Positions 16,706 to 51,857 of a stretch of DNA of 64,000 nucleotides are shown one piece after another. The position numbers and the translations under genes were made by a program. The DNA comes from a virus. Where the stretch lies: IMG/VR virus record IMGVR_UViG_3300045922_000503, positions 35,250 through 99,249 of that record. One strand, given 5' to 3'. Position 1 is the stretch's first letter. Every line of letters begins with the position of its first letter. The notes under the pieces were generated by a model. That model ran no database searches. It was given only the letters and a program-made list of their open reading frames with translations, and was not told the origin of the DNA.

Positions 16706-16834
16706 TCGATGTCCAGGGGCAGAGGAAAGAGGTATCGCAGCCCTTATGTCCAACAACGAGGAACTTGTCCACGCCTGTCCCTCGTGCTACCCTCAGGAGA
16801 GGCGCCCCCGCCACCTCAGACAAGCAGAGGCCAC

Positions 16835-17638
16835 ATGCGTCCCTACTACAAGAGATCTTCCCTTCAAGAAGTTGCCGACCTGGCGCAACAAAAGTCCGTG
16901 CTCCCTCTAGGCCTCATCGGGGCCGGAGCAGGCGGGCTGGCAGGTCTTGGACTAGGAAGCCTCGTTGGCAAAGCAATTGGAAGGCGGGTCAGCCCTGTGA
17001 CGCATACGCTTATGGCGCTGGGCGCGGCAGGGTCGGGCGCGAGCGTTGGTGTAGACTGGGCTAACCGGAATGCTATCGCAGATGCTCGCGACCAGGTCAT
17101 TGGCCGGATGAGTGACGACGATCTGTCGAGGGCAAGGTCACTGATGGCCCTCGAGCATGCGTACACTACGGGGAGGATGGGAGTAGACGCAACGGACAGG
17201 TACGAGCGTATGTACGAGGAACTCCCTGTCGACCCGTACGACGGGCCAATCAACGCGCGGGGAGCGCGCGCAGCTATGCTCGGGGCCCAGGCATTGGGGG
17301 CGGCTGGTCTAGTCGGAGCCATCAACCCGTTCGGGGCACAAGGCGTTAGAAGGGCGGCGGCACCATTGGCAGCAGCGCTCGGCGTGACCGGTATCGGTCT
17401 GATGAGAGACCCTTCCGGTAGACTCCCGAAGGGAGACAGGGACCATATGCGTAAGATGGGCCCTATGGTTATTGGCGGCGGTCCCGGCAATCGCGTGGCA
17501 CCGCCGCTCCGGTCTACTCAGACTGCATTTGATGCGGCGGACAACGAGTTCAACCTGCGGAATGCTCTGCGAGGTCTATCCAAGCAGTCGTCAGCTCCTC
17601 TCCTTCGCCGCGGAGCCGACTATCTCTACTGGGGCTAA
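16835..17638 (+). CDS. Glycine-zipper protein
   Basis: Start reassigned to GAGGCCAC-ATG at 16835 (MRPYYKRSS); GxxxG helices; C-terminal KQSS tail. Confidence 0.7.
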   Translation: MRPYYKRSSLQEVADLAQQKSVLPLGLIGAGAGGLAGLGLGSLVGKAIGRRVSPVTHTLMALGAAGSGASVGVDWANRNAIADARDQVIGRMSDDDLSRARSLMALEHAYTTGRMGVDATDRYERMYEELPVDPYDGPINARGARAAMLGAQALGAAGLVGAINPFGAQGVRRAAAPLAAALGVTGIGLMRDPSGRLPKGDRDHMRKMGPMVIGGGPGNRVAPPLRSTQTAFDAADNEFNLRNALRGLSKQSSAPLLRRGADYLYWG

Positions 17639-17642
17639 AACA

Positions 17643-17667
17643 AGGCCCCGCTGCTACAGCGGGGCCT
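17643..17667 (-). terminator. Intrinsic terminator between convergent genes
   Basis: 11-bp perfect stem aggccccgctg/cagcggggcct; followed by TGTTTT on the minus strand. Confidence 0.7.
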
Positions 17668-17713
17668 CCCTCACGCGCCTAGACGCGCAATCACCGGCGG
17701 CGCGGTCTTCCAA

Positions 17714-18385
17714 TCAGGCACGTACCTCCGAGGAGACAGCCTCCTGACTCACGGCCCGGGCGATGTCCTCCCACATTTCGTCGATCAAGCTCAGCCGAGC
17801 ACGCTCAGCTGCCCTGCGGAAGTAGCCCTCATGCGCCATACGGAGTCTCCGTACGTGGTCCTTATCCCCTGTTGCCCCGCACACGCGGTGGAACAGGGCG
17901 TCGTCTTTGCCCCCACAGGAGCCCCGCAGCAGCCGTAAAGCGTCCTCTTTTACTCGACGTTCTACGCCCGCCGCTACGGCAGCCACGACTACCTGGTCCT
18001 CCTCTTCCCGACTCAGGGAAAGGCCCATCGCTGCAAGCGTGTTCCGACAGGCGAGAGCGCCCCATCGGTCCCACGCCTGGGAAGCCATGCTCTTGGGGAC
18101 AGGCCCGTCATGGCTATGATCTTTCCACGCCTGCTCCGGGTTGTTGGAGCAGAAGTTGGACCAGTGGGGGTTTCCAAAGGTCATACCCCACGCCCTGTCG
18201 CTGGGGACCAAAGGCGTTTCCCCTGCAAGCACCACCGTCCAAGGACGGTAGTACACCTCCTCCCTTTCGGGGGAGATAACCACCCTTGCTGCCGGAAAGG
18301 CAGTCTTCACGACTGCCACTGCGGCGCTGGCGTCAAAGCTCTTCACTTCCTTCTCCAGAACGACGATGCGCGTAACTGCCACCAT
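17714..18385 (-). CDS. Hypothetical protein (putative early gene)
   Basis: SD AGGAG; GGCCATAA motif about 50 nt upstream; terminator downstream. Confidence 0.75.
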   Translation of the reverse strand: MVAVTRIVVLEKEVKSFDASAAVAVVKTAFPAARVVISPEREEVYYRPWTVVLAGETPLVPSDRAWGMTFGNPHWSNFCSNNPEQAWKDHSHDGPVPKSMASQAWDRWGALACRNTLAAMGLSLSREEEDQVVVAAVAAGVERRVKEDALRLLRGSCGGKDDALFHRVCGATGDKDHVRRLRMAHEGYFRRAAERARLSLIDEMWEDIARAVSQEAVSSEVRA

Positions 18386-18434
18386 GACGGATCTCCTGTG
18401 CTTTTGGGAACCTCCATGGTTCCTCCTGGTTATG

Positions 18435-18442
18435 TTATGGCC
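18435..18442 (-). promoter_or_regulatory. GGCCATAA putative phage promoter motif
   Basis: Recurrent motif upstream of non-structural genes. Confidence 0.6.
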
Positions 18443-18731
18443 GCGTAAGTACTTCAGAAGACTAACAAAACCTGCCTCTGCGGAGGACGATTATCCTACA
18501 CAGAGGCAGGTTTGCCGATGTCGTCTTTGCCCCTCAGACGCCATGCCCCCGTCCGTTAGAAACTTCTCGGCGGTATCCCTTAGACTCGGGTCCGCCTCTT
18601 CGACGCACCCTCCCCAGCCGTCTGCGTAGTAGCCCGGACATGCTCGTTGCTCGTGCGCTCCTCTGGGTGTAGATGGAGGTAGACTACCTGCCCCCCGCCG
18701 TGGCTATGGCCATTCTCAGCAGGAGACGCCC

Positions 18732-20426
18732 GTGAGAACCAGAATCAGAGTGGCTAAGATCCTAGACGTCGACCCGGCGAAGTTCACCGCTACGATTCAG
18801 TACTTGGGCTCCGAGGGTGTGGTGGGAGATGTCCCCATCAGTTCCCCCTTCCTCGACATCGAGGGAGGGGCGCACAGCGGGGGGATGCCGAGGGCTGGAT
18901 CCTTCTACTTGGTCGTGTTTCCGGAGAACGCTTCTCAGCCGGTGGTGTGGGGAGGATACCCGCTCCCCACCCCCGATGTCGGGCAGGCAGAGGGGATGGA
19001 AGACCGCGAAAGCGCCGCAGGCCCCCGAGACGACTTCTCCAGCTCCAGGGCTTTCATGGCTCCAGGGGACCAAGGCCTGTTCGGGTATGATGGAGCCAAG
19101 GTGGCACTCAGGTCTTCTGGCGTGCTAGAGCTATTCATGGATGAGATGTGCTGGACCCGGTACTTCATGGACCAGCACGCCATCCGGAGCATGGCCCGAG
19201 CGGTGATGCACTCCGGATGGTGGGGAGCTGTCGAGGGCTTCGTCCTCGACGACAACCTGGCGGAAGACGCAGAAGGGGCGCCCACGGGGGCGAGAGTCAT
19301 CATCAAGAACAGGACTCAGGGCGCAGCGCACGTTCTCATGGAGGCAGGGTCCATCCCGGACGAGGCTGGCGTGCAGCTCGCTGGCGTACCCGTACAGGAT
19401 CAGGGGACTCTGTCCGAGGTTTGCATGCGTCTTCTGGTGTACGACCAGGAGACCGCTGACGCCTACCATGACATGGGGCAGTTCCCGCCGGCTGAGCAGG
19501 CTCGGGTCATGATCAAGGTCGACCAGGAGGGCAACTCCCAGGTGCGCCTCATGGGCATGCTTGACCTCATGGTGAAGAGGCTCCTGCTCTCTGTAGAGGA
19601 ACGCGTCGTGGCTGAAGTGCACGGGGCCACGCAGATGATTCTCAACGGGTTGGACATTGAGTCATCCGCGGATGCCCGTGTCGTTTCCGACACCGGCATC
19701 CTTCTCAAGAGCCGGGGGGACGTCCGCATCAGGGCGAGGCGCTTCATCGTCGAGGCGCTCAACGACATCATCGCAACAGAGGGTGCCTGGGGCGTGGACG
19801 CCGGGGGAGCAGTGAGCATCGCCGGCGCCAGCGGGCTCAACCTGCGCTCGGGCCGGGATCTGACGGTCACTGCAGCAGGAGACCGTGCGGACTCCACGGC
19901 AGGGCGCCTCGATGTGCTGGTGTCAGGCCAGGGGCCGCCGTCGTGGAAGACTACAGACACCCCTACGCACAGGACTAGGCTCAGAGAGGGCAAGATGGTG
20001 CTGGAGACTCACAAGGGCTCCGTGGAAATGAAGCTCAACCCCTCCGGGTCTCCGGCCGCGCCGCCCCTATCCGCCATCCGCATCGTCGGGGATCCGACCC
20101 AGCCACACCTGTTAGGGCGTGTTGAGGTCTTGGCCGGCATCCTGGGCACGGGGCTCGTCGCAGATGTCTCCGGCCTCGTCAGCGTCGGCAACGTTGCCGG
20201 AGGCGTACTCATTGACCCTACAGGTCGGGTGCAGCTGGGACTCAGACAAGGCGTGGTGGGGAACGTCGTGACCAGCACCAGCCATCTGGACTACATGACT
20301 GGGCTTCCGCTGAGAGGTGCCCCCGAGGTCGTAGTGGTCAGTGCTCTTCCGGGCATCCCTGCACCCGGCGTCCCGGTAGTCCCGCCGCTCCCCTTCATCC
20401 CTACTCCTGACCTGATCGGCGCATGA
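18732..20426 (+). CDS. Baseplate central spike / gpV-gp5-like protein
   Basis: N-terminal OB-fold-like pattern (KILDVDP..ATIQY..DVPISSP..GMPRAGS.YLVVF); beta-helix-like repeats; C-terminal HLDYMTGLP apex-like segment; SD AGGAG. Confidence 0.6.
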   Translation: MRTRIRVAKILDVDPAKFTATIQYLGSEGVVGDVPISSPFLDIEGGAHSGGMPRAGSFYLVVFPENASQPVVWGGYPLPTPDVGQAEGMEDRESAAGPRDDFSSSRAFMAPGDQGLFGYDGAKVALRSSGVLELFMDEMCWTRYFMDQHAIRSMARAVMHSGWWGAVEGFVLDDNLAEDAEGAPTGARVIIKNRTQGAAHVLMEAGSIPDEAGVQLAGVPVQDQGTLSEVCMRLLVYDQETADAYHDMGQFPPAEQARVMIKVDQEGNSQVRLMGMLDLMVKRLLLSVEERVVAEVHGATQMILNGLDIESSADARVVSDTGILLKSRGDVRIRARRFIVEALNDIIATEGAWGVDAGGAVSIAGASGLNLRSGRDLTVTAAGDRADSTAGRLDVLVSGQGPPSWKTTDTPTHRTRLREGKMVLETHKGSVEMKLNPSGSPAAPPLSAIRIVGDPTQPHLLGRVEVLAGILGTGLVADVSGLVSVGNVAGGVLIDPTGRVQLGLRQGVVGNVVTSTSHLDYMTGLPLRGAPEVVVVSALPGIPAPGVPVVPPLPFIPTPDLIGA

Positions 20427-23400
20427 CAGCACCACTTCGATGGGATCAGGCCGGCGGTGACATCGGCAACCCAGCTGCCCTGCGGGCCGTCATCGGCGGC
20501 CTGCAACAGGCGAGGGACGCGCTTGAAGCGTCCCGCATCCCTGCTCAGATTGTCGCCACGCTGGCAGAGGTGCAGTACTGGCTCGACCTTGCCATGACGC
20601 TGGCCTCGGGGCAGCGGGTCATAGGCATTGCACTGGGTCAGATCCTGATCGACCTCGTTCGGCCCTACCTCAGCGACGGTGCGTACATCCTGGCTCACAC
20701 CAATGTCGCGGATGTCATTCAGCAGCGGGGACTCAGGACTCTGTTGCAGCACGGGCAGGATCCCTTTGCAACCGCAGGGGACCCGCCGCCCTACGCAGGC
20801 GATGTGTTCACAGACCCGCAGTCCCGCCTTCTTGCTGGCGTGCGTGGCAGTTTCTCCTTCGCTCGACAGGTGCGTCGCGTCTCATCTCCCTTGGCACGCA
20901 ACCCTGTTGTCCAGGAGATCCTGACCACCCTAGCCGGAGAGCCACAGCAGAACTTTGACACCTGGCTGCAGGACTTTCTGAACGCGTTCTACGACGAAGC
21001 TGACCCCCTGCGCCCGGTGCTGTACGAGAGCACTGGTCCTCTGACTCCCGGGCAGAGATTCGAGGTTGGTCCCCCGGAGTTCGGCGGGTATATCTTCACC
21101 GTGGAGACAACGGACCCTACTGTGCTGTTTCGCACACTCGGGCAACTGAGGGACTTGTTCCGGACGAGCTCCCCGTCTTTTGTCAACCCGATCTCCATCA
21201 TTCCGCTGGGGGAGGACGAGGAGTACGACTGGAGGCGGGACCTTGCGAACTTCGCCATGTTCAGAGGGCCAGCAAGAGAGCGAATCCGCATGGTGAGCTC
21301 CACGCCGGACTTCCAGCGCCTCTCCACCGCCGACCTGATGCCGCTGGTCGACAGATTCGCCAACCTGCTCAACATCGCGGCTGGATTCGTCGGACCTCCG
21401 CTGCTGGTCAACGTCAACCTCGACTCCATCATCCAGAGTCTGACAGAAACGTACCTGCGCATCCTTCGTATGCTCGACCTGATCATCAGCACCCTGACGC
21501 AGCTTCAAATGCTGCTGTCTGTGCCAGGGGTCAGCATGCTTCGGATCCCGCTCTCCCGCGCCAGCCTCGACAACTTCGTCGCCGACATCTACCGAGCGTC
21601 AAGCACCAGAGACGATCTAGTCCGAGTCGAGGCAACTCCTCCGCTGTTCCGTGAAGGGGCCGTAGACGACCCTACCGTTGAGAACCCTACCGAGTTGGCA
21701 ATCGCCGGTATGCCAGTCGCGTTCGCCAACAGGGCTGTCGACAACTTCCGTCGCACCTGGGCCCGAGGGACGCTCATCCGGGACCGCCGTGTAGAGCAGG
21801 TCCACGGGTCCTATGTGGGCCGGGGCACCATCATGCGACGAAGCGAGGCCCAACGCATTGCAGCTGCCGTGCCCGAGTTTCGGTTCGGGCCCGTCCACAA
21901 CCTGCTCGTGGGGGGTTTGGGAGTCTTCTACCAGCGAGGCCCCCTGTCTCAGTTCCTTGACGGCCTCTTCAACAGAAGCCGGCGCGGGGGAGGTACGGAA
22001 GAGGACCCAGCTTCACCTGAAGACATTGTCGACGAGCTTCGGCAAGTGCAGTCCGCGCTGTCCTCCGCAGTCACTGCTTCTATCCCCCGGCTTAGCGCGG
22101 CCCCGACAGCTCCTGCAGGGTCGCGGGCCAGCGTGGCGGCAGCGCGGGGGCCTGGCAGGGATTCCTTCAGGCTCGATGACCAAGAGACAGACAGGTTCTC
22201 CGACTCGGGCCGCGCCGCCGGCGCGGAGGACGGAGCGGCAGCAGCACAGTTATCCTCCCCTTTGGGGGTGGTGTCGAGGCCTGCCGTAGACACGGCAGTC
22301 TCGGGGGCAGGCACTGGCTTCAGGCGTTGGGGAGCTGTGGCGGTAGACGCTGCCTCAGGGGCAGACCCCGGCACAGACGCCAACGTGGTCGTTGCGGGGT
22401 CTTGGCGACGAGTCGGCAGGATGCTGCCTGAGCGCCCAGATCTTGAGGTTCCGGCTGTCACTGGAGACGGCCCCCCTCTCGGGGCTCCGGGAGGACCCGA
22501 CGACGTTCCTGCGTCGGGGCGGGTCGCGTCGCGCCTGTGGAAACACAGCGCTGTCTCTCAGGTCATCAGCGTGACCGGGGCCAGCTTGGACGGCCCGGTG
22601 CTGACCTGCCCTGGGTTTGGCCCTGCGTTCAGTATGCCGGACAACCCTGGCGCGGGGGATTACCTTTTGGCGGTAGATCTGCGGCTTCGTATTGAGGCGA
22701 CAGCGGAAGAAGTCCGCGTCCGTACGTCGTTGGTCAAGGTGCTTGGCGCCGATCGGTACCTGCTGTCCCACTGCCCGCCCTCTCCCCCTCTCGCCACGCT
22801 GCTCGGGATCACAGTCGTCGAGCGGGCCGACAACTTCCACCCCGCAGACGAGTACCTGGAGGTCGACGCAAGCGGTATGTCTCCAGACGACGTGCTGGCG
22901 GTCTCCGCGTGCGGCCGAAAGGTTCCTCGACCTGGCTTTGCCACCGCCGCTGCCGCAGAAGATGATCGAATCGGCGTGCTCTCCGCTTCCATCATCGTGG
23001 GGACGTACGTCGCCGCAACTTCTCCGGCACTTCCTTCTTCAATGACAGGCCCCTTGGGAGTGCTGGCAGGGCCAGTGAACTCCCCCACGCAGTCTCTGTC
23101 GACATCTTGGGCGACGGGGTCCAAGGTCCGAAGCTGGTCACCAGACGGAGAGCCATCCCCCAGCACAGACCGGCGCATCGCTGCCTCGCAGACGCCTATC
23201 ACGCAGTGGCGGTTCTCTGGAAACTGGGCAAGCGCCATGGCAGTGCTTCCCCTGGCGGGAGGAGTGGTCCTTGGAGCTGGATCTCCCGCCGTGAACGCGC
23301 TGGTCTATGCCCCCTCGAACCCGGCCACTGGCAACCTCTCCACGCTCGGGGCGGTAGTAACTGTTCGGGTGGGCGGGGAGACAACGTGGTCTGGTCCTCT

Positions 23401-24346: not shown

Positions 24347-24348
24347 CA

Positions 24349-26607: not shown

Positions 26608-26609
26608 GG

Positions 26610-27737: not shown

Positions 27738-28321
27738 GCGGAATCATACTGGACAGGACAGGCGCTACGTCCACGGGCCTGAGGAGTGCAGAGGAGATGT
27801 CAAATCTCTTCAACGCAGGGAGTGACATCCTGGATTACCGCCCGGACCTGGCAGCCAGCGTCGTGCAGGTGGACGACAGGTTCGTCGCCACGGGGGCGAT
27901 GGCGAACCTGTCGATGAGCGTGTGGGTGGAGGGCGAGGCTGACGTGTTCATCCAGTTCTTCCCCAAGGATCGAGTCAAGCAGTTCTCCTTCCGTTTGGAG
28001 ACCTTTGCGAGGGACAGCGACCGCATCGCCCAAGAGGTTCTGGTCAACGCCATGGGACGGGAAGCCCGGGCGGTCGCGGACTTCTTCCCTGCCTCGGTAG
28101 GGCACATGAGGGAAGCTGTTGGGGCGCGGGGGCTCAACGGCGGCAGGGCTGCGAGGCACCAGGGGATGGACCTCCATCAGGTCACAGTCCTCGGGTTGTT
28201 TCGTCGGCTGAACACGAAGTCGCTGGCGACGGGTAACAGCCGGTGGGCCGAGGTGACGCTGGAGTTCATCCAGCGTCACGACCGCCTAGCCGGAGAGCTC
28301 CAACAGCGCGTTGGTCAGTGA
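27734..28321 (+). CDS. Hypothetical protein
   Basis: ATGA overlap; SD AAGGAG. Confidence 0.65.
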   Translation: MSGIILDRTGATSTGLRSAEEMSNLFNAGSDILDYRPDLAASVVQVDDRFVATGAMANLSMSVWVEGEADVFIQFFPKDRVKQFSFRLETFARDSDRIAQEVLVNAMGREARAVADFFPASVGHMREAVGARGLNGGRAARHQGMDLHQVTVLGLFRRLNTKSLATGNSRWAEVTLEFIQRHDRLAGELQQRVGQ

Positions 28322-28810
28322 CCTCCTGCCGTTCGGGCAGGACGCGCAGTTGGCCTGCGCGTAGCAGGACCACGTCCCCAAGGTGCCCCTGACAGCGGCC
28401 TTGACGCCCTCCCTGGCGGGGGAATCGACCCGCATGTCCTGGTTTTCTTTCACCAGAGTCATGAGGGTGCTCAGCGCCTGCCCCACGGAGCAGCTCACCG
28501 GAAACTGCCTGTTGGGGCCTGTCGCCGCATACTCTGCCAGCAGCGACGACGCAGCGCCCAGATCCAGGTTGAACCCGAGGGCGCGCTCCGCGTCCTCCAG
28601 GAAAAGGTCCCTGCCCCTGCTACACTCCAGGCAGCTGCTCATGGACCGGCAGGCGTCTTCCTCCCCTGGCAAAAGAGTAAGTCCTGCGTTCAATCTGCTG
28701 CCGTCTGGGCAGCCAGGGAAGAACACCCGGTTTTGCCCGTGCTGGATGGAATCCAGCAGCAAGTCCAGCGTCAGCTGGACACGATCTTCTGGCTGGTGGT
28801 ACTTGTGCAC
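28286..28810 (-). CDS. Cys-rich hypothetical protein (putative early gene)
   Basis: SD AGGAGG before GTG; two CxxC motifs; GGCCATAA 33 nt upstream. Confidence 0.65.
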   Translation of the reverse strand: MHKYHQPEDRVQLTLDLLLDSIQHGQNRVFFPGCPDGSRLNAGLTLLPGEEDACRSMSSCLECSRGRDLFLEDAERALGFNLDLGAASSLLAEYAATGPNRQFPVSCSVGQALSTLMTLVKENQDMRVDSPAREGVKAAVRGTLGTWSCYAQANCASCPNGRRSLTNALLELSG

Positions 28811-28843
28811 TCGGCCTCCTGTACGACGTCGTCCTCACAGGTA

Positions 28844-28851
28844 TTATGGCC
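28844..28851 (-). promoter_or_regulatory. GGCCATAA putative phage promoter motif
   Basis: Intergenic, 33 nt upstream of the 28810 start. Confidence 0.6.
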
Positions 28852-28876
28852 ACCCCGGTCCCATCAGATGTGATCC

Positions 28877-30766: not shown

Positions 30767-30833
30767 CGCCGGATCCCGGAGGCTAAGTGCCGAGCCATTT
30801 GTACCCCGCCCCCAGCAGTGGGGCGGCGGGCGG

Positions 30834-31250
30834 CTACGTCTCGTCGTCTTCCCGAGTTTCCTCGAGAAGACTTGCTACGACCACACTCAGCTCCTGCAAG
30901 CGGTCGGTATCCACTCCCTTGCCGCCGCGGGACCGGGCTGCACGTCTTGAGAACCGGGCTGCCTGCCTCGCCTCTCGGTACCCGGCGACGCCTACCGCTA
31001 CCCCCGCGCCGCTCAGCATGGTCAACAGCAGTCCGATGGCGCTCATCCGCTTGAACTGCTGCTCAGTGCGAGCTTGGTTGTACCGCATTTCTTGCGAGAG
31101 GTTGTCGAACAGCGCTCTGTCTACGCTGTCCCGGTACTCGGCCGCCTGGGTGGCCAGCTGCTCTGCGTGCGCTTGAACCGCACGCACGGCTTCCTGCATC
31201 TCTCGATTGACTGCCGCACGCACAGCAGCATCGAGGAACTCATCGGTCAT
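30834..31250 (-). CDS. Coiled-coil protein with one transmembrane helix
   Basis: SD AAGGAGG; TM segment IGLLLTMLSGAGVAVGVAGY; divergent from the palindromic promoter. Confidence 0.7.
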   Translation of the reverse strand: MTDEFLDAAVRAAVNREMQEAVRAVQAHAEQLATQAAEYRDSVDRALFDNLSQEMRYNQARTEQQFKRMSAIGLLLTMLSGAGVAVGVAGYREARQAARFSRRAARSRGGKGVDTDRLQELSVVVASLLEETREDDET

Positions 31251-31287
31251 GGTGGCCTCCTTATCTGTAAAGTGGGGTGGACATTGA

Positions 31288-31303
31288 TGTTATGGCCATA
31301 ACA
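31288..31303. promoter_or_regulatory. Perfect palindrome TGTTATGGCCATAACA, two overlapping divergent GGCCATAA motifs
   Basis: Between divergent genes; motif cores 39 nt and 33 nt from the two start codons. Confidence 0.7.
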
Positions 31304-31334
31304 GCTGTGACCCCCCACAACTGGAGACGTACAG

Positions 31335-32132
31335 ATGACGGTCTTTCCTGAAAGCGCTCTCCTATCGGCCGCTGCAGCAGTCGAGCAGGAGTGTAACCCT
31401 CCACCGAAGCTGGATACAGGCCAGCGCTCTGACTGCAGGCAGGAGTTGTATCTTCTGCATCGCGCCCTAGAGGAAATCTGTAGCATGGTGCGGACGACCC
31501 GCAACCTCCCTGACCCGGTGGACAGATACGCCGTGGGGCAAGACATCAAAGTAAGAGTCGGGCGCATCGCCCGGATCATGCAAACGTTCGAGAAGCGGGG
31601 CCTCCTAGCCGAGGCATCCGAGGAGGTAGCCGCCGTGTTGGAAGCTCAGGACCCTGTGACTCGGGGAGAAGTACACCGGTTGCTGGAGGAGGCAGCGGCC
31701 CCCTCGCGACCTGCGGAAGGCACGACCGTTCGACCGTACAACACGGGAGTCAGCCAGACGCTGTTCCCGGCGAAGCCGATGCCCCCGGCACCTTATCAGT
31801 CGATGCATGTCGGCGGAGGGACGCCGACCCCACGGCCGCCTATGCCGCCCCCTACCGGGTACAACCAGACAGCCCCCGCCGGCGGGGGCGGCGGGTACGG
31901 GGGCGGCTTCAGTATCCCCGTGGTTGGAGGCAAACAGATGCCTACGGGTCCGGCGCACCTACACGCCGACCTGTTTCGGACGCTGCCGCCACCAAGGCCT
32001 CCTCAGATGGAGCCGGGGCTGCTTGACGACATGGTCGGCGCAGGCTGGGCGGGCGTGGCCATGTTCATGCAGGCCTTCGCTGCCTACTTCACAGGCCGTA
32101 TCATCGGCCAGGGCCACCGCCCTTGGGGCTGA
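31335..32132 (+). CDS. Hypothetical protein, Pro-rich with hydrophobic C-terminal helix
   Basis: SD GGAG; ORF fills the space downstream of the palindrome. Confidence 0.65.
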   Translation: MTVFPESALLSAAAAVEQECNPPPKLDTGQRSDCRQELYLLHRALEEICSMVRTTRNLPDPVDRYAVGQDIKVRVGRIARIMQTFEKRGLLAEASEEVAAVLEAQDPVTRGEVHRLLEEAAAPSRPAEGTTVRPYNTGVSQTLFPAKPMPPAPYQSMHVGGGTPTPRPPMPPPTGYNQTAPAGGGGGYGGGFSIPVVGGKQMPTGPAHLHADLFRTLPPPRPPQMEPGLLDDMVGAGWAGVAMFMQAFAAYFTGRIIGQGHRPWG

Positions 32133-32829
32133 CACGCCCCCCGACCCGCGCCAGCGCTGGCGCGGGTGCTTCAGGGGTGACAGCCCTTAGCCACTCCCGA
32201 ATGATGCTGCGCTCAAGAGGTGCAGCGCCGAACGGAACACGGTCTGCATCCATCAAGCCAGCTTGCGCAGCACAGGCTGTCGCTACGTAGTGAATGGAGG
32301 AGAGCCAATGTCGACATCGTGACAGGAGATGAGAGGAGGAGGAGTCAGACACTGGATCTGCGGCCCGCACGACGTCGACCGCGCGGGCGAACACTGACAG
32401 TGCCATTGCCTTCGTTGTCTGATCTTCCTGGACGAGCTCTGCCAGCAGTGCCGCACCCAGAGTGTCTGCCGCGATTACCAGGTGGTTGACCTCTTCCAGT
32501 GCATCAGGTCCTCCTCTTTTGTCGATTGCTCGCAGGTCTGACAGTGCCCTTTGCGCAGACGCTTTGGCGCTGGGGACTGCAGCGATGGCGTCTGCCGCCT
32601 TGCCCCCTCGCATGCCGTGCAGCGCTACTTCCATGGCTCCCACCCGAGCGGCCAGCTCGTCGACGTCCACGGGTAGAGAAGGAGGAGCGTCTCTGACCAG
32701 GGCTTCCCCCTCCGCGGAGTAAGTCATCTCCAGGAGTCCAGCACGGACCTGGCGTTGGGTCTCCTCCATCGTCAGACCCCGCTGGGTCATCATTGTCTTG
32801 ACGGGGGTCCATCTGCTACCCTGAGCCAT
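32101..32829 (-). CDS. Hypothetical protein, possible N-terminal HTH-like DNA-binding domain
   Basis: Start reassigned to MAQGSRW (SD GGAG); TQRQVRAGLLEM resembles MerR/excisionase-type HTH. Confidence 0.5.
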   Translation of the reverse strand: MAQGSRWTPVKTMMTQRGLTMEETQRQVRAGLLEMTYSAEGEALVRDAPPSLPVDVDELAARVGAMEVALHGMRGGKAADAIAAVPSAKASAQRALSDLRAIDKRGGPDALEEVNHLVIAADTLGAALLAELVQEDQTTKAMALSVFARAVDVVRAADPVSDSSSSHLLSRCRHWLSSIHYVATACAAQAGLMDADRVPFGAAPLERSIIREWLRAVTPEAPAPALARVGGRVSPKGGGPGR

Positions 32830-32854
32830 CGAGGTCTCCATCCGAGGAAAGATC

Positions 32855-35340: not shown

Positions 35341-35341
35341 G

Positions 35342-37260: not shown

Positions 37261-37275
37261 CCCAAAGGTACTCCC

Positions 37276-38913: not shown

Positions 38914-38986
38914 TCGACCCACGGGGCTTGCCAAGAGCCCGTTTTCCTTACAACATGACCTGAGTCGACCTCACCGAGGAACACCC

Positions 38987-39322: not shown

Positions 39323-39350
39323 TCTCTGACCCCATCCTCGAGGAACTACA

Positions 39351-39923: not shown

Positions 39924-39977
39924 TCCCTCCGATCCCCTCGCCGACTGATCTTCTCTCAACCTCTCGGAGTCCATATC

Positions 39978-41114: not shown

Positions 41115-41136
41115 TCCTGCTGCTCTGGAGGGCTGC

Positions 41137-41853: not shown

Positions 41854-41854
41854 C

Positions 41855-42361: not shown

Positions 42362-42378
42362 CCCCCCACGAGGAAGCG

Positions 42379-43053: not shown

Positions 43054-43125
43054 TCAGGCTGCGCCGCCGGGCGCTGCTCAGCCTGGCGGCAGACCTCTCC
43101 ACCTCTGCCGCCACAGGTTGCCCCC

Positions 43126-44679: not shown

Positions 44680-45806
44680 CCGTGCGGGACTCCATCTTCC
44701 TCAGCGCAGATGCACGGCAGCGCCCTGTCGACCTCGAGAGGAGTGGAGCGTCATCTCCCTTCGGACGATGGCGGCTCAACGTCGTCATCGAGGCCGGGTC
44801 TACCGCAGTGCTCCGCTGGCGGCCTCTGTCTTCCCCCCCGCACGTCTTCTCTGTAGAGGAGGAGGACGAAGGATCGTCGACGGAACGCAAGTGGATGGTG
44901 GAGTCGGCAGGGAGCCCTGGGGGGCCGTTCTTTCTGCTTTCGGACACGGTGCACGTCTCTTCCAGGCAGTACGTCGATGGATCCATTCGGCGCGACAAGC
45001 TGGACGACCTTCGTCGGTACTACCGAGTCACGCTACTGGAGCGTGCTGACGGGGAGTCAGAGTGGGCGCCCTCCCTGCAGATTGGTTACCACCCGGAATG
45101 GTGGGCTGGAACTGCGGCGGACGGAGGCGTCTTCGGAGTGGGGTGGGGCGCGGGCGACAAGCTGCAAGAAGAGGCTCCACCGATTGTAGTTACCGCTCGG
45201 TCCCGGATCAGCACGATGCTCCGCACGCGGTCAGCAGAGGCCTGCTACCTCTACCGCCCGGAGTCGGAGCACGAGTTCTCGTCAGAACACGTAGACCCCC
45301 TCACTGGTACAGTGATGGGGGATGATTTCACGTCAGCGCAGAGCACGTTCGGCTCGCCAACGTACAGCCCTCAAGGGTACTACGCTCCCATGGCCACCTT
45401 CATCTCCATGTCTCCTGTACAAGGAAAGGGGATGGGGGTGACTGCCCCAGGGGTAATGCCCCATTGGCCTCCGCCCCAGATCGGGGACCGGCTGAGGATG
45501 GTCTCAGATGCCAGCGTCATGGAGGTGGTGGCATCCACTCCTAATCACGCCTACGGGTTTGTGACCCACTGGACGGTCGTCCTGATGCACCTGGAGACGT
45601 CCGACCCCATCACCAACATTCCCATGCCCATCGACCACCCTTTTACCAGTGGGCACGCGCGTCGGCAGATGGCCAGGGCCGCCAATCTGGAGTCCTTCTA
45701 CCAGAGCCAGGAGCATGGTAGGATGAGTCGAGCCACCCCCGACCTGCCTCCGTGGCAGGGAGGGCCCGGCCCCGCCAGCGCGGGCGGGAGAGGGTGGGAC
45801 GAGTGA
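44676..45806 (+). CDS. Putative neck/head-closure protein
   Basis: Position before terminator and sheath genes; beta-rich C-terminal domain (PQIGDRLR). Confidence 0.5.
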   Translation: MTVRDSIFLSADARQRPVDLERSGASSPFGRWRLNVVIEAGSTAVLRWRPLSSPPHVFSVEEEDEGSSTERKWMVESAGSPGGPFFLLSDTVHVSSRQYVDGSIRRDKLDDLRRYYRVTLLERADGESEWAPSLQIGYHPEWWAGTAADGGVFGVGWGAGDKLQEEAPPIVVTARSRISTMLRTRSAEACYLYRPESEHEFSSEHVDPLTGTVMGDDFTSAQSTFGSPTYSPQGYYAPMATFISMSPVQGKGMGVTAPGVMPHWPPPQIGDRLRMVSDASVMEVVASTPNHAYGFVTHWTVVLMHLETSDPITNIPMPIDHPFTSGHARRQMARAANLESFYQSQEHGRMSRATPDLPPWQGGPGPASAGGRGWDE

Positions 45807-45820
45807 CCACCTGAGGAGCG

Positions 45821-46795
45821 ATGCCCAACGAGCCCGTGAAGAAGACGCACCTGCGGGCCGACGACGATCTTCGGTTGAGAGAGGACCTGGTTCGGTACGC
45901 GCGGCTCCTAGAAGAGCGCAGCCGCGCTCGGGCTGGCCAGGCGACTTGGAGCGACGGGGCACTCTCCATCATCGAGCACGAGTACGAGACGCAGCCCTAT
46001 GCAGGGTCGGCAGCGCTCGACACCATGGTCTACATCGTCCGGGGACTTCGAGAGATATTCGGACAGGATCCCGTGTTCACCTGGGTGGGGGAAGCTAACG
46101 GCATGGCAAACCCACAGGCCACCCGTATCAACATCTACAACGCGCTGGCGCCAATCAACGCGCCTCGAAACCCGCAAGCCCCCGACGTCATCATCCGCTG
46201 CTCGACGGCCGGGTTTCCCCCATCCATGCTCGGCAACCTGGCCGGCTTCAACATGGTTGACGGGACGAAGACGCACGCCGGTATCATCCCCATCGGGTGC
46301 CAGATCGAGGTGTCTGCCTCGTCTCCAGCCACGACCTCCCGGCTTGCCGAGCATGTTGCCACCATCTTCCGGGCCGGGTGGCGACAGTGGACCAAGTTCA
46401 GGATCTTCGACATCCGTGACATTCAGCTCCAGGACATGGGGACCAGGAACAACACTCCTCAGGCGCAGAACGCTCAGTCAGACCTTCGGACCACCTGCAT
46501 GGTCGGGCTCACCATGCTCCGCGCGTGGGTCACTACTGACCGCCCTAACCCTGCCTACCATGAGAAGGCCCGCGCCTTGGCGATGACGGACAACCAGGCC
46601 CCCATCGACGGGCAGCCCCCGACGGGCCGAAGGGCTACAGACTCCTCGTTCCGCGCCCAGGACGTGGAGATGGGACTGGCGAGCGGCGCACGGCCTGCTA
46701 TGCTCAGTGTGACCGAGTTCATGGTCGGCGGCGAAGACCCACCGGCCATCCACGTCACCCGACCAGAAGCCCCCGTCGAGGAACATGACGACTGA
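45821..46795 (+). CDS. Putative tail terminator/completion protein
   Basis: Directly upstream of the sheath; alternating alpha/beta pattern; SD GAGGAG. Confidence 0.5.
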   Translation: MPNEPVKKTHLRADDDLRLREDLVRYARLLEERSRARAGQATWSDGALSIIEHEYETQPYAGSAALDTMVYIVRGLREIFGQDPVFTWVGEANGMANPQATRINIYNALAPINAPRNPQAPDVIIRCSTAGFPPSMLGNLAGFNMVDGTKTHAGIIPIGCQIEVSASSPATTSRLAEHVATIFRAGWRQWTKFRIFDIRDIQLQDMGTRNNTPQAQNAQSDLRTTCMVGLTMLRAWVTTDRPNPAYHEKARALAMTDNQAPIDGQPPTGRRATDSSFRAQDVEMGLASGARPAMLSVTEFMVGGEDPPAIHVTRPEAPVEEHDD

Positions 46796-49700
46796 TACCT
46801 TCCGCCGCATCGAGCCGCCCGGCATCGCGGAGTTCTACACGGTCACCATTCAGCCTGCGAATGTGCCCGAAGAAGAGCTCCCCATCGCGCTGATCATGCC
46901 GCACTACGACGTGCAGGACGCCTTCGGGCCCGACGGCGCCGCGCTCGAGAGCGCCGAGGTTGGGGCGTACACCACCAGCCAGGTGGACTGGCTGTACGAG
47001 CGGGTCTTGGACGAGAAGCTCTCCTTCCCTCTGGAGGCGGTAGACGCTGCCCGTCTCGTGAACCCCGACGAAGTGCGCGTGTTCGGCACCTTCGGGACCG
47101 GGCGCTCGTTCTCTCTGGCCAGTGCGGATGAGCCGCGCGTGCTGCGCAGGGGAACGGCAGCTATCGAGCGCTCGCCGGGCCAGCCGTTCATGCTGCTCCA
47201 AGACAACGGCGCCAACTTTCGGAAGCTTTTGGAGCGTCAGCAGGTCCCCAACGAGCCCCCCGACTTCCGCCGGCCTCTGCTGGCCGTCCGACTGGTCAAC
47301 GAAGGGGGGGACGTGCTCCTTCCGGTCGACGTCCAGGCCACGCTCAGCCTCGGGACGGACAGGACAATCGTCGTCTACGGGGACATGACCTTCGGTCGGA
47401 TGTTCTCCGGGCAGCAAGACACCCGCCGAGCCACCAACATCGACTATGAGCTCGTCCTTCGACCTCGGACGGTGGATGTTTCCAACGCGCGCCAGCGAGC
47501 TGCTGCTGCCCTGGCATGCGCGGAGTACACTGGGGGCATTGAGATCCCTCTGACGCGTCCTCAAGTCATTGAGGAGCCGGACCTGTTCCGGTTCTTTGTT
47601 GTGGGCGTCGGCAACATCTCCCTTCAGTTCTCGAACACGACCGGCCCTCTCGATGTAAGCGTGACCAATAGTGGTAGAACCATCACGATCGACTTGGGAG
47701 ATGAGGGACCCGTGCAGGTTTCCGCCCTGAACGCTGCTATCGTGGCCGCCTACGCAGGCAGCGTGCCGGCGGGGTACTTCGATGAAGCGTACACCTCGAC
47801 TCTTGATGCCACTAATGTCTCCGGTACGTTCAACACCTTCAGCATGGCGGTCACCGTAACCGCTCGCGTTGTGAACACGGACCCGCTCTTCAGTGGGCAG
47901 GTGCGCGTGACGCCCCCCGGCAACACGCTCGTGCCCGCAGTTGTGACCAGTGGCAGTTCCGGAGGCATTTTCGGCTTGGGGTTGCCCGGCCGAAACGGCC
48001 TCATCCTCCCAGGGCTGACTGCCGCAGATCTCGCTGCGTCGCTAACGGATGCCAGTAATTACGGCCAGGCTCGTCCGCAGGTTGGCATGCAGTCGGACCC
48101 TTACCGTTTGCAGCTACCTGTCGAAGTACAGTCGGACCCTAGTGCCTGGATGTTGCTGACCCCCGCAGAAACTAACCCGGCGACGTTCCTGACGGAGTAC
48201 GACCCGGCTGTACTGCCGCCGGCACGGATTATCGCACTGGCCGAAATCCGGTACCGGACGCCTGGCCCAGTAGGGAACCAGTTTTCGATCCGCATCGAGA
48301 GCTCGATGCAGGACGGCATTCGCATCGAAGACGACGGAAGTCTCGTCATTGAAGACAATGGGGGGTCGCTACGCGATCTGGCGCAGCGCCTCGAAGGGAC
48401 GGCGTATGAGCTGACCAACGTGCGTGCCCTGCGACCTATCGGCTCGGGGGACAACTTCGAGGTCATGGTTCCCATGGAAGACCCGGACGACTGGCCAGGC
48501 GCCGAGATCGCGCATTTCCCGTTTCAGGAGGAGGGCACTCGAGTCCGGTCGGGTGGCTCCGTAGGTCAGTATCGGGAGATCCCCAACTTCTCTGCTCGGG
48601 AAGTTCAGCTGCAGGGAGGGTCTAACCGCGCACGTCTGCTGCTCAGTCGGGATGAGCTGGTTTCTCCTGCTAACGGCATCAACATCCGGCTGCTTGCTGA
48701 CTACCGTGCACTGAGGATCGATACGTCCGCAGCGACTACCGTGACTGCCTTCGGGCGCGCCCCCGACTTCATCCCGGTCAACCGGAGCAACTACCAGGCC
48801 ATCGCTGGGAGGCCGTCTCTGCGGAACCCTATGGCGTTCGAGCTGGAGCAGTTCTTCCGCGTTGCCCCCGCGGCAACGATCAACATCCTGTCCGTATCCG
48901 AGGTTTCCTCGGCGTTTCCCTACGGAACCCCGGCGGCAATCTCGGAGGCTCTCAGCTTGCTGGAGCGCCGGCGGCCCTACTTCTTGGGCATGGCGGCTCA
49001 CGGGCAGGACATTCAGAACGCCGTCTACGATTGGCTGATCAGCTTGGGAGGGGACGTGCCGTCCCGACTGCGCAAAATGGTCAACGTGTTCCTGCCCGTC
49101 AAGAACCCGACCGACGAGCCAGTGATCCAGCTCACAGATGGCGTGGCAGCCAGCGTCGATCTAAGCGAGTTCGACGACCTGCCGTCCACTCTGGTTGTCT
49201 CGAATGTCGACATCGCGGATGACGTTCGACTGTCGGCGGTTCTGGAGGCCGGCCGGTTGGTGTTGGTGGCTACGCAGTTCCCCACGGCCTCTGACGCTCC
49301 AGTTGCCCTTTCGGACGGAAGACGGGGGTGGCCGGTGCTCGGCACTGGCCTTCTGGGCAACCCGTTTGCATTCATGGTGGGAGGGGCGTCTGCCTCCTTC
49401 TACCTCTCCAGCTTCGGTGACTTCACGCTGGTGGACCGCGGGGAGTCGCTGGTAACTCCTACAGGTGGGTACCGGTCGGCTGAGGGTGCGCGGGCACTGG
49501 CGATGCGGGAGCAGCAGACTCCGCATAAGTTCCTCAGCAAGATTCTGGGGGATACCGTTACGGTCACGTCGGCCGGCCGTACCGTGACTGTGCCACACGA
49601 ACTCGTCGTAATCGCGCAGGTGCTGGCCATGCTGGCGGTCATGCCTGGTGACCGGACCCGCAGTCTGACAGACAACGTGTTCCCTGGGATCAACCGGTAC

Positions 49701-50147
49701 ACGGGGACCAGTGACATCTACGACGCTGATGGGCTCAACATCATCCGCGGCGCTGGCGTCATCATCCCCGTACAGCCTGGCGGACCTAACACCCCTGTGG
49801 ATCTGAGCCGCGATCTCACGTCAGACGTGACGAATACGTACACGCAGAAGCGCGCTGCTCACGTGCTCGACCACCTGCTGAGCCTTCGTATCCGTCGCCG
49901 TGTCCGCCCGCTGCTGGGGCCCAATGACATCACCCCGCAGTTGCTGGACACAATCGGCATCGCCATCAACACTGAGATCGATGCCCTGCGTGACCGGTAC
50001 GAGATCCTCAGCCTGCGCACCATTCGCCCCGTCACAGCGGAGGACCGGGCGCGCTACGGCGTGCAGGACACCGGCGTTTACGTGGCGCTGGAACGGAAGC
50101 ACCGAGAGGAGGCTTCCGTCATGATTCTCGAGAACTTCATCGTCTGA
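46785..50147 (+). CDS. Contractile tail sheath protein (large, with inserted domains)
   Basis: N-terminal PPGI.E; C-terminal LNIIRGAGV..RDLTSD..LDHLL..IRRRVRPLLG..ITPQLLDTI; followed by the tube gene. Confidence 0.75.
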   Translation: MTTDTFRRIEPPGIAEFYTVTIQPANVPEEELPIALIMPHYDVQDAFGPDGAALESAEVGAYTTSQVDWLYERVLDEKLSFPLEAVDAARLVNPDEVRVFGTFGTGRSFSLASADEPRVLRRGTAAIERSPGQPFMLLQDNGANFRKLLERQQVPNEPPDFRRPLLAVRLVNEGGDVLLPVDVQATLSLGTDRTIVVYGDMTFGRMFSGQQDTRRATNIDYELVLRPRTVDVSNARQRAAAALACAEYTGGIEIPLTRPQVIEEPDLFRFFVVGVGNISLQFSNTTGPLDVSVTNSGRTITIDLGDEGPVQVSALNAAIVAAYAGSVPAGYFDEAYTSTLDATNVSGTFNTFSMAVTVTARVVNTDPLFSGQVRVTPPGNTLVPAVVTSGSSGGIFGLGLPGRNGLILPGLTAADLAASLTDASNYGQARPQVGMQSDPYRLQLPVEVQSDPSAWMLLTPAETNPATFLTEYDPAVLPPARIIALAEIRYRTPGPVGNQFSIRIESSMQDGIRIEDDGSLVIEDNGGSLRDLAQRLEGTAYELTNVRALRPIGSGDNFEVMVPMEDPDDWPGAEIAHFPFQEEGTRVRSGGSVGQYREIPNFSAREVQLQGGSNRARLLLSRDELVSPANGINIRLLADYRALRIDTSAATTVTAFGRAPDFIPVNRSNYQAIAGRPSLRNPMAFELEQFFRVAPAATINILSVSEVSSAFPYGTPAAISEALSLLERRRPYFLGMAAHGQDIQNAVYDWLISLGGDVPSRLRKMVNVFLPVKNPTDEPVIQLTDGVAASVDLSEFDDLPSTLVVSNVDIADDVRLSAVLEAGRLVLVATQFPTASDAPVALSDGRRGWPVLGTGLLGNPFAFMVGGASASFYLSSFGDFTLVDRGESLVTPTGGYRSAEGARALAMREQQTPHKFLSKILGDTVTVTSAGRTVTVPHELVVIAQVLAMLAVMPGDRTRSLTDNVFPGINRYTGTSDIYDADGLNIIRGAGVIIPVQPGGPNTPVDLSRDLTSDVTNTYTQKRAAHVLDHLLSLRIRRRVRPLLGPNDITPQLLDTIGIAINTEIDALRDRYEILSLRTIRPVTAEDRARYGVQDTGVYVALERKHREEASVMILENFIV

Positions 50148-50166
50148 TCCACCCCCACGAGGCCAC

Positions 50167-51048
50167 ATGGCGACGCTTACCGACTGGAACTTCTACGACC
50201 GGAATGTACAGTCCGGGCTGACCGAGGGCCAGTTCATCAACTCCAACTCGATCTTCTTGGGCGCAGGTCCCCCGTTCCTGCAGTCTACGTCTACGGCTGT
50301 CCGGCAGCGGGTGACCGAGAGCATCCTTCCCAACGCAGAAGAAGACCTTGCGGTCCCCGAGGTCACAGAAGAGGCGGAGATCGTTTTCGGGTTGGGCACT
50401 ACTCAGCAGTTCGCGATGTCGCAGAACACCGCGATGATTCCGGTCACCGAGATCGGGTCGTACCAGCGGTACATCGTCCGCGGCAACACGGACGGGGGCG
50501 CGCAGCTGCAGAAGATTCTGGTTCACGGGCCTAGCATCCTGCGCGCCCTGCACGCGTACAAGGGCATCAAGGACCCTTCGTCCGCCGGAGGGGTGTTCGA
50601 CCCCCTGATTCGGAACTCGGACGCCACCTACGCCGGATACCCCAAGAACCGACTCTTCGAGAGCCCCGGCCACGAGAACTTCTGGATCAACCTGGCGTCC
50701 GACGTGTTCACCGCAGGCTTTGGCCTGCTGGTCTACATCGAGGACTCCGGTGTGGAAGGTTACGGGGCCTTCTACCTCGAGCAGGTCTTCAGCAACGCTC
50801 ACCAGTTCTCGTTTGCTCCTGGTCAAACGGTGGTGGCGGAGTCCGTGTCCTGCATGTTCGGCCGCGTTCGGCCAGTCAAGCTGACTCGGGCTGTGCCTCT
50901 TATCGGTCGGTCTGATACCGCTGGGCGCATCGCCTTGGCCGGTGGCCCCAACACGCTCCCGCAGGATGGCCTCAGCCGGCCTGCAGATTCCGTCAACCGG
51001 GCGGCACCGGGTGGCTTCGCTCCGATCCCCACTCGGTCCAACCGGTAA
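50167..51048 (+). CDS. Tail tube protein
   Basis: Follows the sheath; GTTQQFAMSQN..PVTEIGS and YLEQV..HQFS..VAESVS tube-like strands. Confidence 0.7.
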   Translation: MATLTDWNFYDRNVQSGLTEGQFINSNSIFLGAGPPFLQSTSTAVRQRVTESILPNAEEDLAVPEVTEEAEIVFGLGTTQQFAMSQNTAMIPVTEIGSYQRYIVRGNTDGGAQLQKILVHGPSILRALHAYKGIKDPSSAGGVFDPLIRNSDATYAGYPKNRLFESPGHENFWINLASDVFTAGFGLLVYIEDSGVEGYGAFYLEQVFSNAHQFSFAPGQTVVAESVSCMFGRVRPVKLTRAVPLIGRSDTAGRIALAGGPNTLPQDGLSRPADSVNRAAPGGFAPIPTRSNR

Positions 51049-51051
51049 GGC

Positions 51052-51387
51052 ATGCTCCCTGCTTCGGCAAAGGAAGCCCCCACCAGCAGCGCCGTCAGCG
51101 CTCTGGCTTCCATGGGCGGGGCTGCCTTCATCGAGTCCGTGCACAGGGCCACCGCATGCGACCCGGTGCACGGGCAGTCCAGCCCCAGCTCGCTGGTGGC
51201 GGTCAAGCTCCCTGCCCGGGCCGTCTCGGCGCTACGCCGACGGGCGCAGGCAGCGTCGGTGGTCAAGGCCATCAACGTTGGGCCCGGCGCACCCGGAGCC
51301 CACATGCCCTACTCCGTCGAGGAGCTCATTCGAGACGTAATTATCGCGTACCTACGCGAAGCAGACGAGTTGGGAGACAGTCCGTGA
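51052..51387 (+). CDS. Possible ribbon-helix-helix protein
   Basis: VAVKLP..VSALRRRA...SVEELIRDVIIAYL pattern. Confidence 0.4.
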   Translation: MLPASAKEAPTSSAVSALASMGGAAFIESVHRATACDPVHGQSSPSSLVAVKLPARAVSALRRRAQAASVVKAINVGPGAPGAHMPYSVEELIRDVIIAYLREADELGDSP

Positions 51388-51800
51388 GCGGCACCGCGCC
51401 ACTATCTTCTCGCTGGGGAGCGTTTCGCCGGCGACCCGATGACCGTGTTCTGCGCACGTCGCCTTCAAGTCCTACCCCGCCTGTATCTGCGCCGACGGCG
51501 TCCCCGCTCGACGTCTTCAAGCTCAAGCCAGCGGAGCAGGTTACCCGCACCGTAAAAGTGCCCCTGCTGCCGCTGGAGGACGCCGTAATGGCAGTCATCA
51601 AGTCGGCCGGAGGCGCCCCCATTCTAGGTGGTGACCTGGTAGCAAAGTCGCTGCTGGCACACTCCGAGGCAGACGCCATCAAGGCTATCCCAGATGAACT
51701 TGCAGGGATGGCAACGCAGATGCTGGTTCGAGTCGCCAGGTCTATGGCCGTCGCCACCCTGTCGGTTTCTATTCAGCTTCCTCTGCCGACCGGGCCATAA
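51384..51800 (+). CDS. Hypothetical protein
   Basis: GTGA overlap start; fills the gap. Confidence 0.5.
   Translation: MSGTAPLSSRWGAFRRRPDDRVLRTSPSSPTPPVSAPTASPLDVFKLKPAEQVTRTVKVPLLPLEDAVMAVIKSAGGAPILGGDLVAKSLLAHSEADAIKAIPDELAGMATQMLVRVARSMAVATLSVSIQLPLPTGP
51793..51800 (+). promoter_or_regulatory. GGCCATAA putative phage promoter motif
   Basis: 57 nt upstream of the DUF932 gene; overlaps the TAA stop of the previous gene. Confidence 0.55.
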
Positions 51801-51857
51801 GACCTCTGCGCAGATGACCCGGGCCATGTCGGATCCCGGCACGCGCAGGAGGACAGG

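Follow-up and report, generated by a model that had tools for sequence, protein, structure and literature searches.

In the jumbo phages phiKZ and AR9, the RNA polymerases (RNAPs) of the virion recognize early promoters that are conserved words of about 10 nucleotides (nt) near position -10, and the late promoters of these phages escape motif searches (PMC7598289). Here, we are concerned with a short word, GGCCATAA, in a 64,000-nt stretch of the viral contig IMGVR_UViG_3300045922_000503, which encodes an RNAP of another build, a single beta-beta' chain with an intein. This stretch, called the window in the following, covers bases 35250-99249 of a contig of 99,249 bases that originates from a hot spring and is rated about 55% complete; coordinates are those of the window unless a contig or another genome is named. 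A preliminary description of the window had proposed GGCCATAA as a candidate promoter for the phage RNAP that marks isolated non-structural genes interrupting the virion gene cluster. Our work extends the word to the 16-base signal GGCCATAACA-N4-Y-R (N, any base; Y, pyrimidine; R, purine), and as judged from the sequence this signal is very probably a promoter. The specificity of this promoter is probably encoded by the phage, and with moderate confidence we assign the core enzyme that reads it to the phage RNAP. Taken as a whole, we favor with fair confidence a lineage-specific single-box promoter of the extended -10 type that heads early or non-virion transcription units and is read by the phage RNAP together with a sigma-like subunit.

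The word is far too frequent and too regularly placed to be a chance occurrence. The window holds five exact copies, at 18435-18442(-), 28844-28851(-), 31290-31297(-), 31294-31301(+) and 51793-51800(+), compared to 0.68 +/- 0.82 copies expected by chance, and none of 100 shuffled sequences reached this number. The whole contig contains 15 exact copies, most of which (10 of 15) are located upstream of the window in the region for replication and metabolism; the reversed word, which served as a further control, does not occur at all. All 15 copies are intergenic in a contig of which about 10% is non-coding according to the crude, self-trained gene map used for these calls (binomial p = 4e-16), and no other word of this length is as strongly enriched between the genes of the contig. 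In the six contexts that are informative, i.e. not divergent, the motif always has the orientation of the gene that follows. When up to two mismatches are allowed, the number of copies (31) does not exceed the 33.7 expected by chance, and the motif is thus sharply defined. The coordinates and strands given in the preliminary description were all correct, and its scan by eye had overlooked no copy in the window, but it did not cover the ten copies further upstream. Its spacing of 33 to 57 nt holds as well, since 49, 33, 39, 33 and 57 nt separate the 8-mer from the next start codon in the same orientation. It also fits the variant GGACATAA that had been listed at 16744-16751(-), 38 nt ahead of the ATG of an open reading frame (ORF) for 79 amino acids (aa). 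This variant is indeed present, but it lacks statistical support, as at least one copy was found in 43 of the 100 shuffles, and its role as a promoter is unproven. In its extended form, GGACATAAGG, it scores 11.3 bits with the position weight matrix (PWM) as compared to 16-26 bits for the exact copies, and its first nine bases agree with the consensus of a related phage, G001 (see below).

When the 15 copies are aligned, the word can be extended to t-GGCCATAACA-N4-Y-G. The base that follows the 8-mer had been described as variable, and this is the case in the window (C, T, C, C, G); among all 15 copies, however, this position 9 is C in 12, T in two and G in one. Position 10 is A in 14 copies, position 15 is a pyrimidine and position 16 a purine in all of them (G in 14). 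If motif position 16 is taken as +1, CATAAC occupies positions -12 to -7, and the signal can be read as a -10 hexamer with its upstream extension, G-15 G-14 C-13, C-12 A-11 T-10 A-9 A-8 C-7, so that the conserved Y-R lands exactly at -1/+1. In this frame, G-14 and A-11 T-10 A-9 A-8 are present in 15 of 15 copies, -15 is G rather than T, a T is found at -16 in nine of the 15, and two copies read CATAAT with a T at -7. The purine 7 nt past the hexamer, again found in every copy, is consistent with the predicted start. A -35-like box was considered and rejected: the best positional word upstream of the motif occurs at 5 of the 15 sites, which equals the maximum of the random controls, in agreement with the earlier remark that no consistent -35 is visible. 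A sigma70 scan called none of the motif sites, and TATAAT, TATAAA and TAAATA are absent from both strands of the 99-kb contig. Two other promoter classes were rejected as well, sigma54 promoters (GG-N10-GC) because the second conserved dinucleotide follows 13 nt after the GG and is YG/YR rather than GC, and the T4-type late promoter TATAAATA because neither TATAAA nor TAAATA is found in the contig.

Close variants of the signal are present in all the phages examined that possess an RNAP of this family. Relatives of the fused beta-beta' enzyme are numerous: they are encoded by 216 of the pattern-matched viral contigs, and one of them, P0002, which is 86% identical, is encoded on a 76-kb contig. 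Six genomes were retrieved and subjected to the identical intergenic word test. They are listed here with their RNAP identity, which for the phages Arash and D181 refers only to a 366-residue beta segment of the query, their G+C content and their intergenic motif.

This phage: G+C 63%; tGGCCATAACA
G001: RNAP identity 48%; G+C 53%; GGACATAAGA
G006: RNAP identity about 31%; G+C 62%; GGCATAAGA
G014: RNAP identity about 32%; G+C 62%; GGCATAAGA
G011: RNAP identity about 31%; G+C 57%; cGGTATAAG
Salmonella phage Arash (OQ632216): RNAP identity about 35%; G+C 53%; tGGTATAAG, 31 of 31 copies intergenic
Vibrio phage D181: RNAP identity about 34%; G+C 45%; tGTTATAAG, 17 of 18 copies intergenic

In each of the six relatives, a word with the identical core and register ranks first or close to first among the intergenic words. 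In G006, a GCAA-like word is also seen about 14 nt upstream. When the seven genomes are placed in one frame, position 15 is a pyrimidine in 91 of 93 intergenic sites and position 16 a purine in all 93. G-14, A-11, T-10, A-9, A-8 and the Y-R initiator are the invariant features of these genomes, and -12 is either C or T. Our phage conforms to the core of the lineage, G-14, N, Y-12 A T A A S-7 (S, G or C), followed by N5 and Y-R, and it departs from its relatives at -7 as a variant within the family: at intergenic sites with the geometry of the motif, it has 13 C, 2 G and 2 T (n=17), whereas G is the rule in all six relatives (94 G and 7 T, n=109). The arrangement of the sites is also paralleled in a cultured phage. 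The minus strand of Arash carries 30 of the 31 copies, and the minus-strand islets gp200c-203c, gp207c-211c and gp214c inside the plus-strand cluster of portal, RNAP and virion genes are each headed by the motif. This is the picture that had been drawn for the window studied here.

The same comparison bears on the idea that the primary-sigma holoenzyme of the host uses the motif as an extended -10 promoter and that its conservation just reflects a common ancestral sequence. G-14, A-11 T-10 A-9 A-8 and a start 7 nt downstream are indeed the architecture of bacterial extended -10 promoters, two copies here read CATAAT, and the relatives Arash, with TGGTATAAG, and D181 even carry the canonical TG at -15/-14; however, the T-7 that sigma70 takes into a dedicated pocket (PMC7598289) is nearly absent, with 2 of 17 sites in our phage and 7 of 109 in the relatives. 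Moreover, the non-T core persists from Salmonella and Vibrio phages to phages of unknown host, with G+C contents from 45 to 63%, no -35 box compensates for it, and no site is called by the sigma70 scan. The avoidance of T-7 and the persistence of the signal across hosts and base compositions argue against the primary sigma factor of the host, and we regard this explanation as unlikely. The proposal of a candidate promoter has thus gained strong support from the strictly intergenic location, the co-orientation, the fixed Y-R and the conservation in the lineage. Its second half, that the promoter serves the phage RNAP, is supported only indirectly, as the motif family tracks the RNAP family in seven genomes and T-7 is avoided, but it has to be modified in that a sigma-like factor probably takes part.

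Based on these observations, we suggest the following mechanism. The core would be bound in the register from G-15 to C-7 as described above, the DNA would open from A-11, and the RNA would start at the conserved purine at motif position 16, 7 nt past the core. The enzyme that reads the signal would be the single-chain beta-beta' RNAP of the phage, directed most probably by a small sigma-like subunit similar to those encoded in the relatives, and this subunit would tolerate G or C in place of T at -7. In this way, the early genes of the phage would be kept apart from the sigma70 programme of the host.

The copies in the window, the genes that we place under them, and the RNAP gene are as follows.

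1..8064, plus: single-chain beta-beta' RNAP with intein (Pfam Rpb2_6, Rpb1_1/2/3/5, Intein_splicing), 2743-aa product P0001
16736..16751, minus: possible weak variant GGACATAAGG-N4-CG, unproven, 31 nt before the ATG (16705) of the 79-aa ORF; PWM 11.3 bits
17714..18385, minus: ORF, 223-aa gene without Pfam/PHROG family, under the copy at 18442
18427..18442, minus: putative promoter, exact match GGCCATAACA-N4-CA; predicted +1 at 18427, 42-nt leader to the start codon at 18385; PWM 16.2 bits
28286..28810, minus: ORF, 174-aa gene without Pfam/PHROG family, divergent from the large terminase gene
28836..28851, minus: putative promoter GGCCATAATA-N4-TG, T at -7; predicted +1 at 28836, 26-nt leader; PWM 25.7 bits
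28877..30766, opposite in direction to the 174-aa gene: large terminase gene (phrog_675, E = 9e-36)
30834..31250, minus: ORF, 138-aa gene without Pfam/PHROG family, under the copy at 31297
31282..31297, minus: putative promoter GGCCATAACA-N4-TG; predicted +1 at 31282, 32-nt leader; PWM 24.7 bits
31294..31309, plus: putative promoter GGCCATAACA-N4-TG; predicted +1 at 31309, 26-nt leader to the ATG at 31335; PWM 26.5 bits, the best of the contig
31335..32132, plus: 265-aa gene without Pfam/PHROG family, under the copy at 31294
51793..51808, plus: putative promoter GGCCATAAGA-N4-TG, G at -7 as in the relatives; predicted +1 at 51808, 50-nt leader; PWM 20.0 bits
51858..53045, plus: 395-aa DUF932 protein (PF06067, E = 3.9e-37; phrog_1221), under the copy at 51793

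Four of the five start codons behind these predicted leaders are preceded by a GGAG-type ribosome site, and the distances from motif to start codon range from 26 to 100 nt. Since two divergent copies, those at 31297(-) and 31294(+), overlap by their GGCC, they form a 16-bp palindrome, TGTTATGGCCATAACA, at 31286-31301. This operator-like structure and the location of the motif 26-100 nt ahead of start codons might point to a binding site for a phage regulator or to an element of the 5' leader RNA that acts in processing or translation instead of a promoter, but none of the remaining 13 copies is a palindrome, their direction strictly follows that of the genes, and the fixed Y-R 7 nt downstream (91-93 of 93 sites in the seven genomes) is the signature of an initiation site. 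For an RNA element, the divergent pairs would require a further promoter upstream. There is no match to any Rfam family, and the leaders of just 26-50 nt leave no space for a separate promoter downstream of the motif. We consider a role of the motif other than that of a promoter to be very improbable.

In the 35 kb ahead of the window, the motif heads genes for VWA, MoxR-type and ChlI-type ATPases among others, and the gene for a class II ribonucleotide reductase is located about 1.25 kb downstream of the copy at contig position 13535(+). In contrast to these units, no copy precedes the RNAP gene, the ORF of which begins 167 bases ahead of the window, or the long plus-strand arrays of virion genes, and no second enriched word was found in front of these arrays. 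As four of the five genes headed by the motif in the window do not belong to any family and the fifth encodes a DUF932 protein, the term non-structural is putative for them.

Which proteins might read an extended -10 element together with the phage enzyme? In bacteria, region 3 of sigma70 is the part that touches such elements. Proteins with a Pfam Sigma70_r3 match above the cut-off are found among the relatives, i.e. Arash gp10, proteins of G014 and G012 and a protein extracted from G011, and some of them have weak matches to region 2 or 4 as well. These sigma-like proteins are homologous to each other, and a homolog in G001 was identified by BLAST. Mass spectrometry has shown that virions of Arash include the sigma-like gp10 and the two RNAP subunits, which belong to the most abundant proteins detected (PMC10585845). 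The G001 protein (G001 71311-72363, minus strand) starts with M-T-F-N-L-Q-D-A-F-A-K-L-S and continues with an acidic linker of about 100 residues; its K-L-S leader resembles the K-x-S leaders of presumed virion-cargo proteins of our phage, which suggests that this factor may be loaded into the head. In a complex model, the G001 protein and the clamp region of the G001 RNAP reached a score of 0.73, compared to 0.00 for the best of three controls; in a benchmark, 58 of 80 solved complexes and 2 of 110 mismatched pairs reached the mark, counts that are only rough as own alignments were used. The runs share at least 44% of the contacts, and the pLDDT of the partner is at least 73. The modelled interface joins RNAP residues 1272-1323, between Rpb1 domains 1 and 2, to sigma2-like helices, at a place that matches the contact of the clamp helices with sigma region 2 in bacterial holoenzymes. 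The model supports the idea that the G001 sigma-like protein may bind the clamp of its own RNAP; however, complexes of sigma factors with the beta' clamp helices are well represented among solved structures, and the model may thus reflect likeness to these structures rather than binding.

These proteins could also act in a different manner, namely with the core RNAP of the host, as is the case for T4 gp55 and SPO1 gp28; the phage RNAP would serve another class of genes. The conservation of the sigma-like proteins in the relatives would fit this idea, and so would the existence of two promoter classes: a second word, CTAAAATA(TA), is conserved in Arash and D181 and is located 16-77 nt before most of the plus-strand genes that carry it, at the plus-strand positions 137630, 139406, 142676 and 173498 of Arash and at 14 sites in D181 (OZ196140). 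In Arash, it precedes gp212 and gp216, the gene for the second RNAP subunit, and it is a candidate for the late promoter class of this RNAP family. Against a partnership with the host enzyme, Arash packages gp10 along with its RNAP subunits (PMC10585845), a K-L-S leader like those of the presumed cargo proteins is present in the G001 copy, and the model docks this copy on the clamp helices of the phage RNAP, even though likeness to solved complexes could yield the same result. A phage factor that directs the host core enzyme to the motif is in our view a rather unlikely solution, slightly more so than recognition by the primary sigma factor of the host.

Our preferred reading, a promoter for the phage RNAP with a sigma-like subunit, has to cope with several observations that weigh against it. 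First, the element is close enough to a bacterial extended -10 for use by the host holoenzyme, and this is especially true for the two CATAAT copies. Second, the minus-strand ORFs at 32101-32829 and 53397-54700, which are located within the plus-strand cluster, are not preceded by the motif; they do not belong to a recognisable family and might be expressed differently or might not be real genes. The statement that the motif marks isolated genes interrupting the virion cluster is thus only partly right, as it does not apply to these ORFs and does not describe the ten of 15 copies outside the window; the presence of opposite-strand genes without a copy implies that the motif is not the sole means of expressing such genes. 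Third, the complex model was obtained for a relative with 48% RNAP identity, and it does not discriminate against the host core enzyme. Finally, no sigma-like gene was detected on the contig, neither with the Pfam profiles for regions 2 and 3 and tblastn with the proteins of three relatives, nor with a hidden Markov model built from four sequences (six-frame ORFs) and hhalign (all called proteins). Pfam revealed no sigma domain in ten leader-tagged proteins encoded in the neighbourhood, and no sigma-like gene was found in the relative G006, the genome of which is 91% complete. The G001 sigma-like gene is located in a segment that has no counterpart here, and the missing half of our genome may thus hold one.

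It is tempting to speculate, although this is a tentative idea that we regard as possible rather than likely, that throughout the family a bacterial-type RNAP delivered by the virion and a small packaged sigma-like subunit that reads an extended -10 element constitute a private transcription code, and that the specificity of the pocket for -7 has changed from T to G and then, in the hot-spring lineage, to C. If so, the early genes of these phages would be invisible to the sigma70 of their hosts and the host promoters invisible to the phage enzyme, and the switch from G to C at -7 would be a natural case of co-evolution between a promoter and a sigma pocket. Irrespective of this idea, our work provides a precise and testable promoter consensus with a predicted start for a very large RNAP family that includes the cultured phages Arash and D181, which make tests at the bench straightforward. 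One informative base, at position -7, seems to distinguish the phage promoters from those of the host, and the sigma-like subunit is the probable reader. For genome annotation, the motif divides the phage genomes into units that are driven by it (early/accessory) and units that lack it (virion).

Several further features were observed in the course of the analysis. At the left end of the contig, a near-copy of the motif, tGCCCATAATA-N4-TG (contig 113-134, minus strand; PWM 15.7 bits), is located 13 nt past the only CTAAAATA of the contig. G+C-rich inverted repeats at window positions 17639-17713 and 30767-30833 are placed between convergent gene ends, on the far side of two of the minus-strand genes that are headed by the motif; they look like bidirectional terminators that would insulate these islets. 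In the region at contig 13535-13640, the motif copy has no ORF nearby; 18 nt past its predicted start, there is a perfect hairpin of 14-15 bp (-50 kcal/mol, z = -3.9) followed by CUUCCUUU, and this structure might represent a short RNA or function as an attenuator or shared terminator. Directly upstream of the copy at contig 28315-28322(-), three direct repeats CTAG(T/C)CCAC at about 28330-28370 border a 1.25-kb stretch that was left uncalled by the gene caller; they could be a site for a regulator or an origin. A search for tRNAs was negative.

Other repeated words in the relatives were rejected as promoters. The top genome-wide repeats of G001 are a coding 15-nt tandem repeat: a gene at 5700-6400 consists of CGCCGGTGAGGTTGG-like units, resembles pentapeptide repeats and dominates the genome-wide repeat statistics. 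GGCTAAAA in G006 and GCTAGAAA in G014, which were considered as a second promoter class, are stop codons followed by terminator hairpins. ACGTTGTAAC in Arash is part of paired repeat elements that form five facing pairs about 140 bp apart at 26.6, 66.4, 100.1, 138.5 and 173.3 kb. No DNA-level relative of our phage was found in the phage collection searched, and neither two metagenome scans nor a viral scan with a neighbouring protein of 776 aa revealed close relatives. The paper on Arash (PMC10585845) does not describe promoters, a full-text search with the Arash core word GGTATAAG gave nothing relevant among the papers listed, and no paper on the promoters of this RNAP family was found.

How does the element compare with described systems? 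It shares with the bacterial extended -10 promoter (TGnTATAAT, recognized by regions 2 and 3 of sigma70) G-14, A-11 T-10 A-9 A-8, a pyrimidine at -12, the independence of a -35 box and, as predicted, a purine start 7 nt after the hexamer that is preceded by a pyrimidine. It differs at -7, where C here and G in the relatives take the place of the near-invariant T, and at -15 with G instead of T, and its ten contiguous, almost invariant bases go far beyond what is seen in host promoters. A private -10-type word with a consensus different from that of the host and the redirection of one class of genes are also known for T4 gp55 with its late promoter TATAAATA and for SPO1 gp28/gp34. Those factors act with the core enzyme of the host, whereas here a phage RNAP is available as the likelier partner, and the contig is devoid of TATAAA. 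The closest cultured carriers of the RNAP family are Arash and the Vibrio phages D69, D148 and D181 with about 35% identity. Arash and D181 share tGGTATAAG or tGTTATAAG followed by N5-Y-R as well as the opposite-strand islets within the virion cluster, but their CTAAAATA before plus-strand genes is absent from the virion genes of this contig, they have T at -12 and G at -7, and in Arash beta and beta' are encoded by two different genes. As in phiKZ and AR9, the phage has an RNAP of its own, bioinformatics revealed a word of about 10 nt that is conserved near -10 and precedes early or non-structural operons, and the late promoters remained undetected by motif search. However, the RNAPs of phiKZ and AR9 are split into several beta/beta' pieces and have no sigma-like subunit of recognisable sequence, whereas the enzyme studied here is a single chain with an intein; the RNAPs of AR9 and PBS1 are about 26% identical to it over 63% of the beta-subunit (Rpb2_6) query. 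Moreover, their promoters are AT-rich and unrelated in sequence, whereas the core of the present element is half G+C and has the geometry of a sigma70-type extended -10. The element is thus probably a promoter specific for a phage polymerase, a kind that is already known, in an RNAP lineage different from that of phiKZ and AR9.

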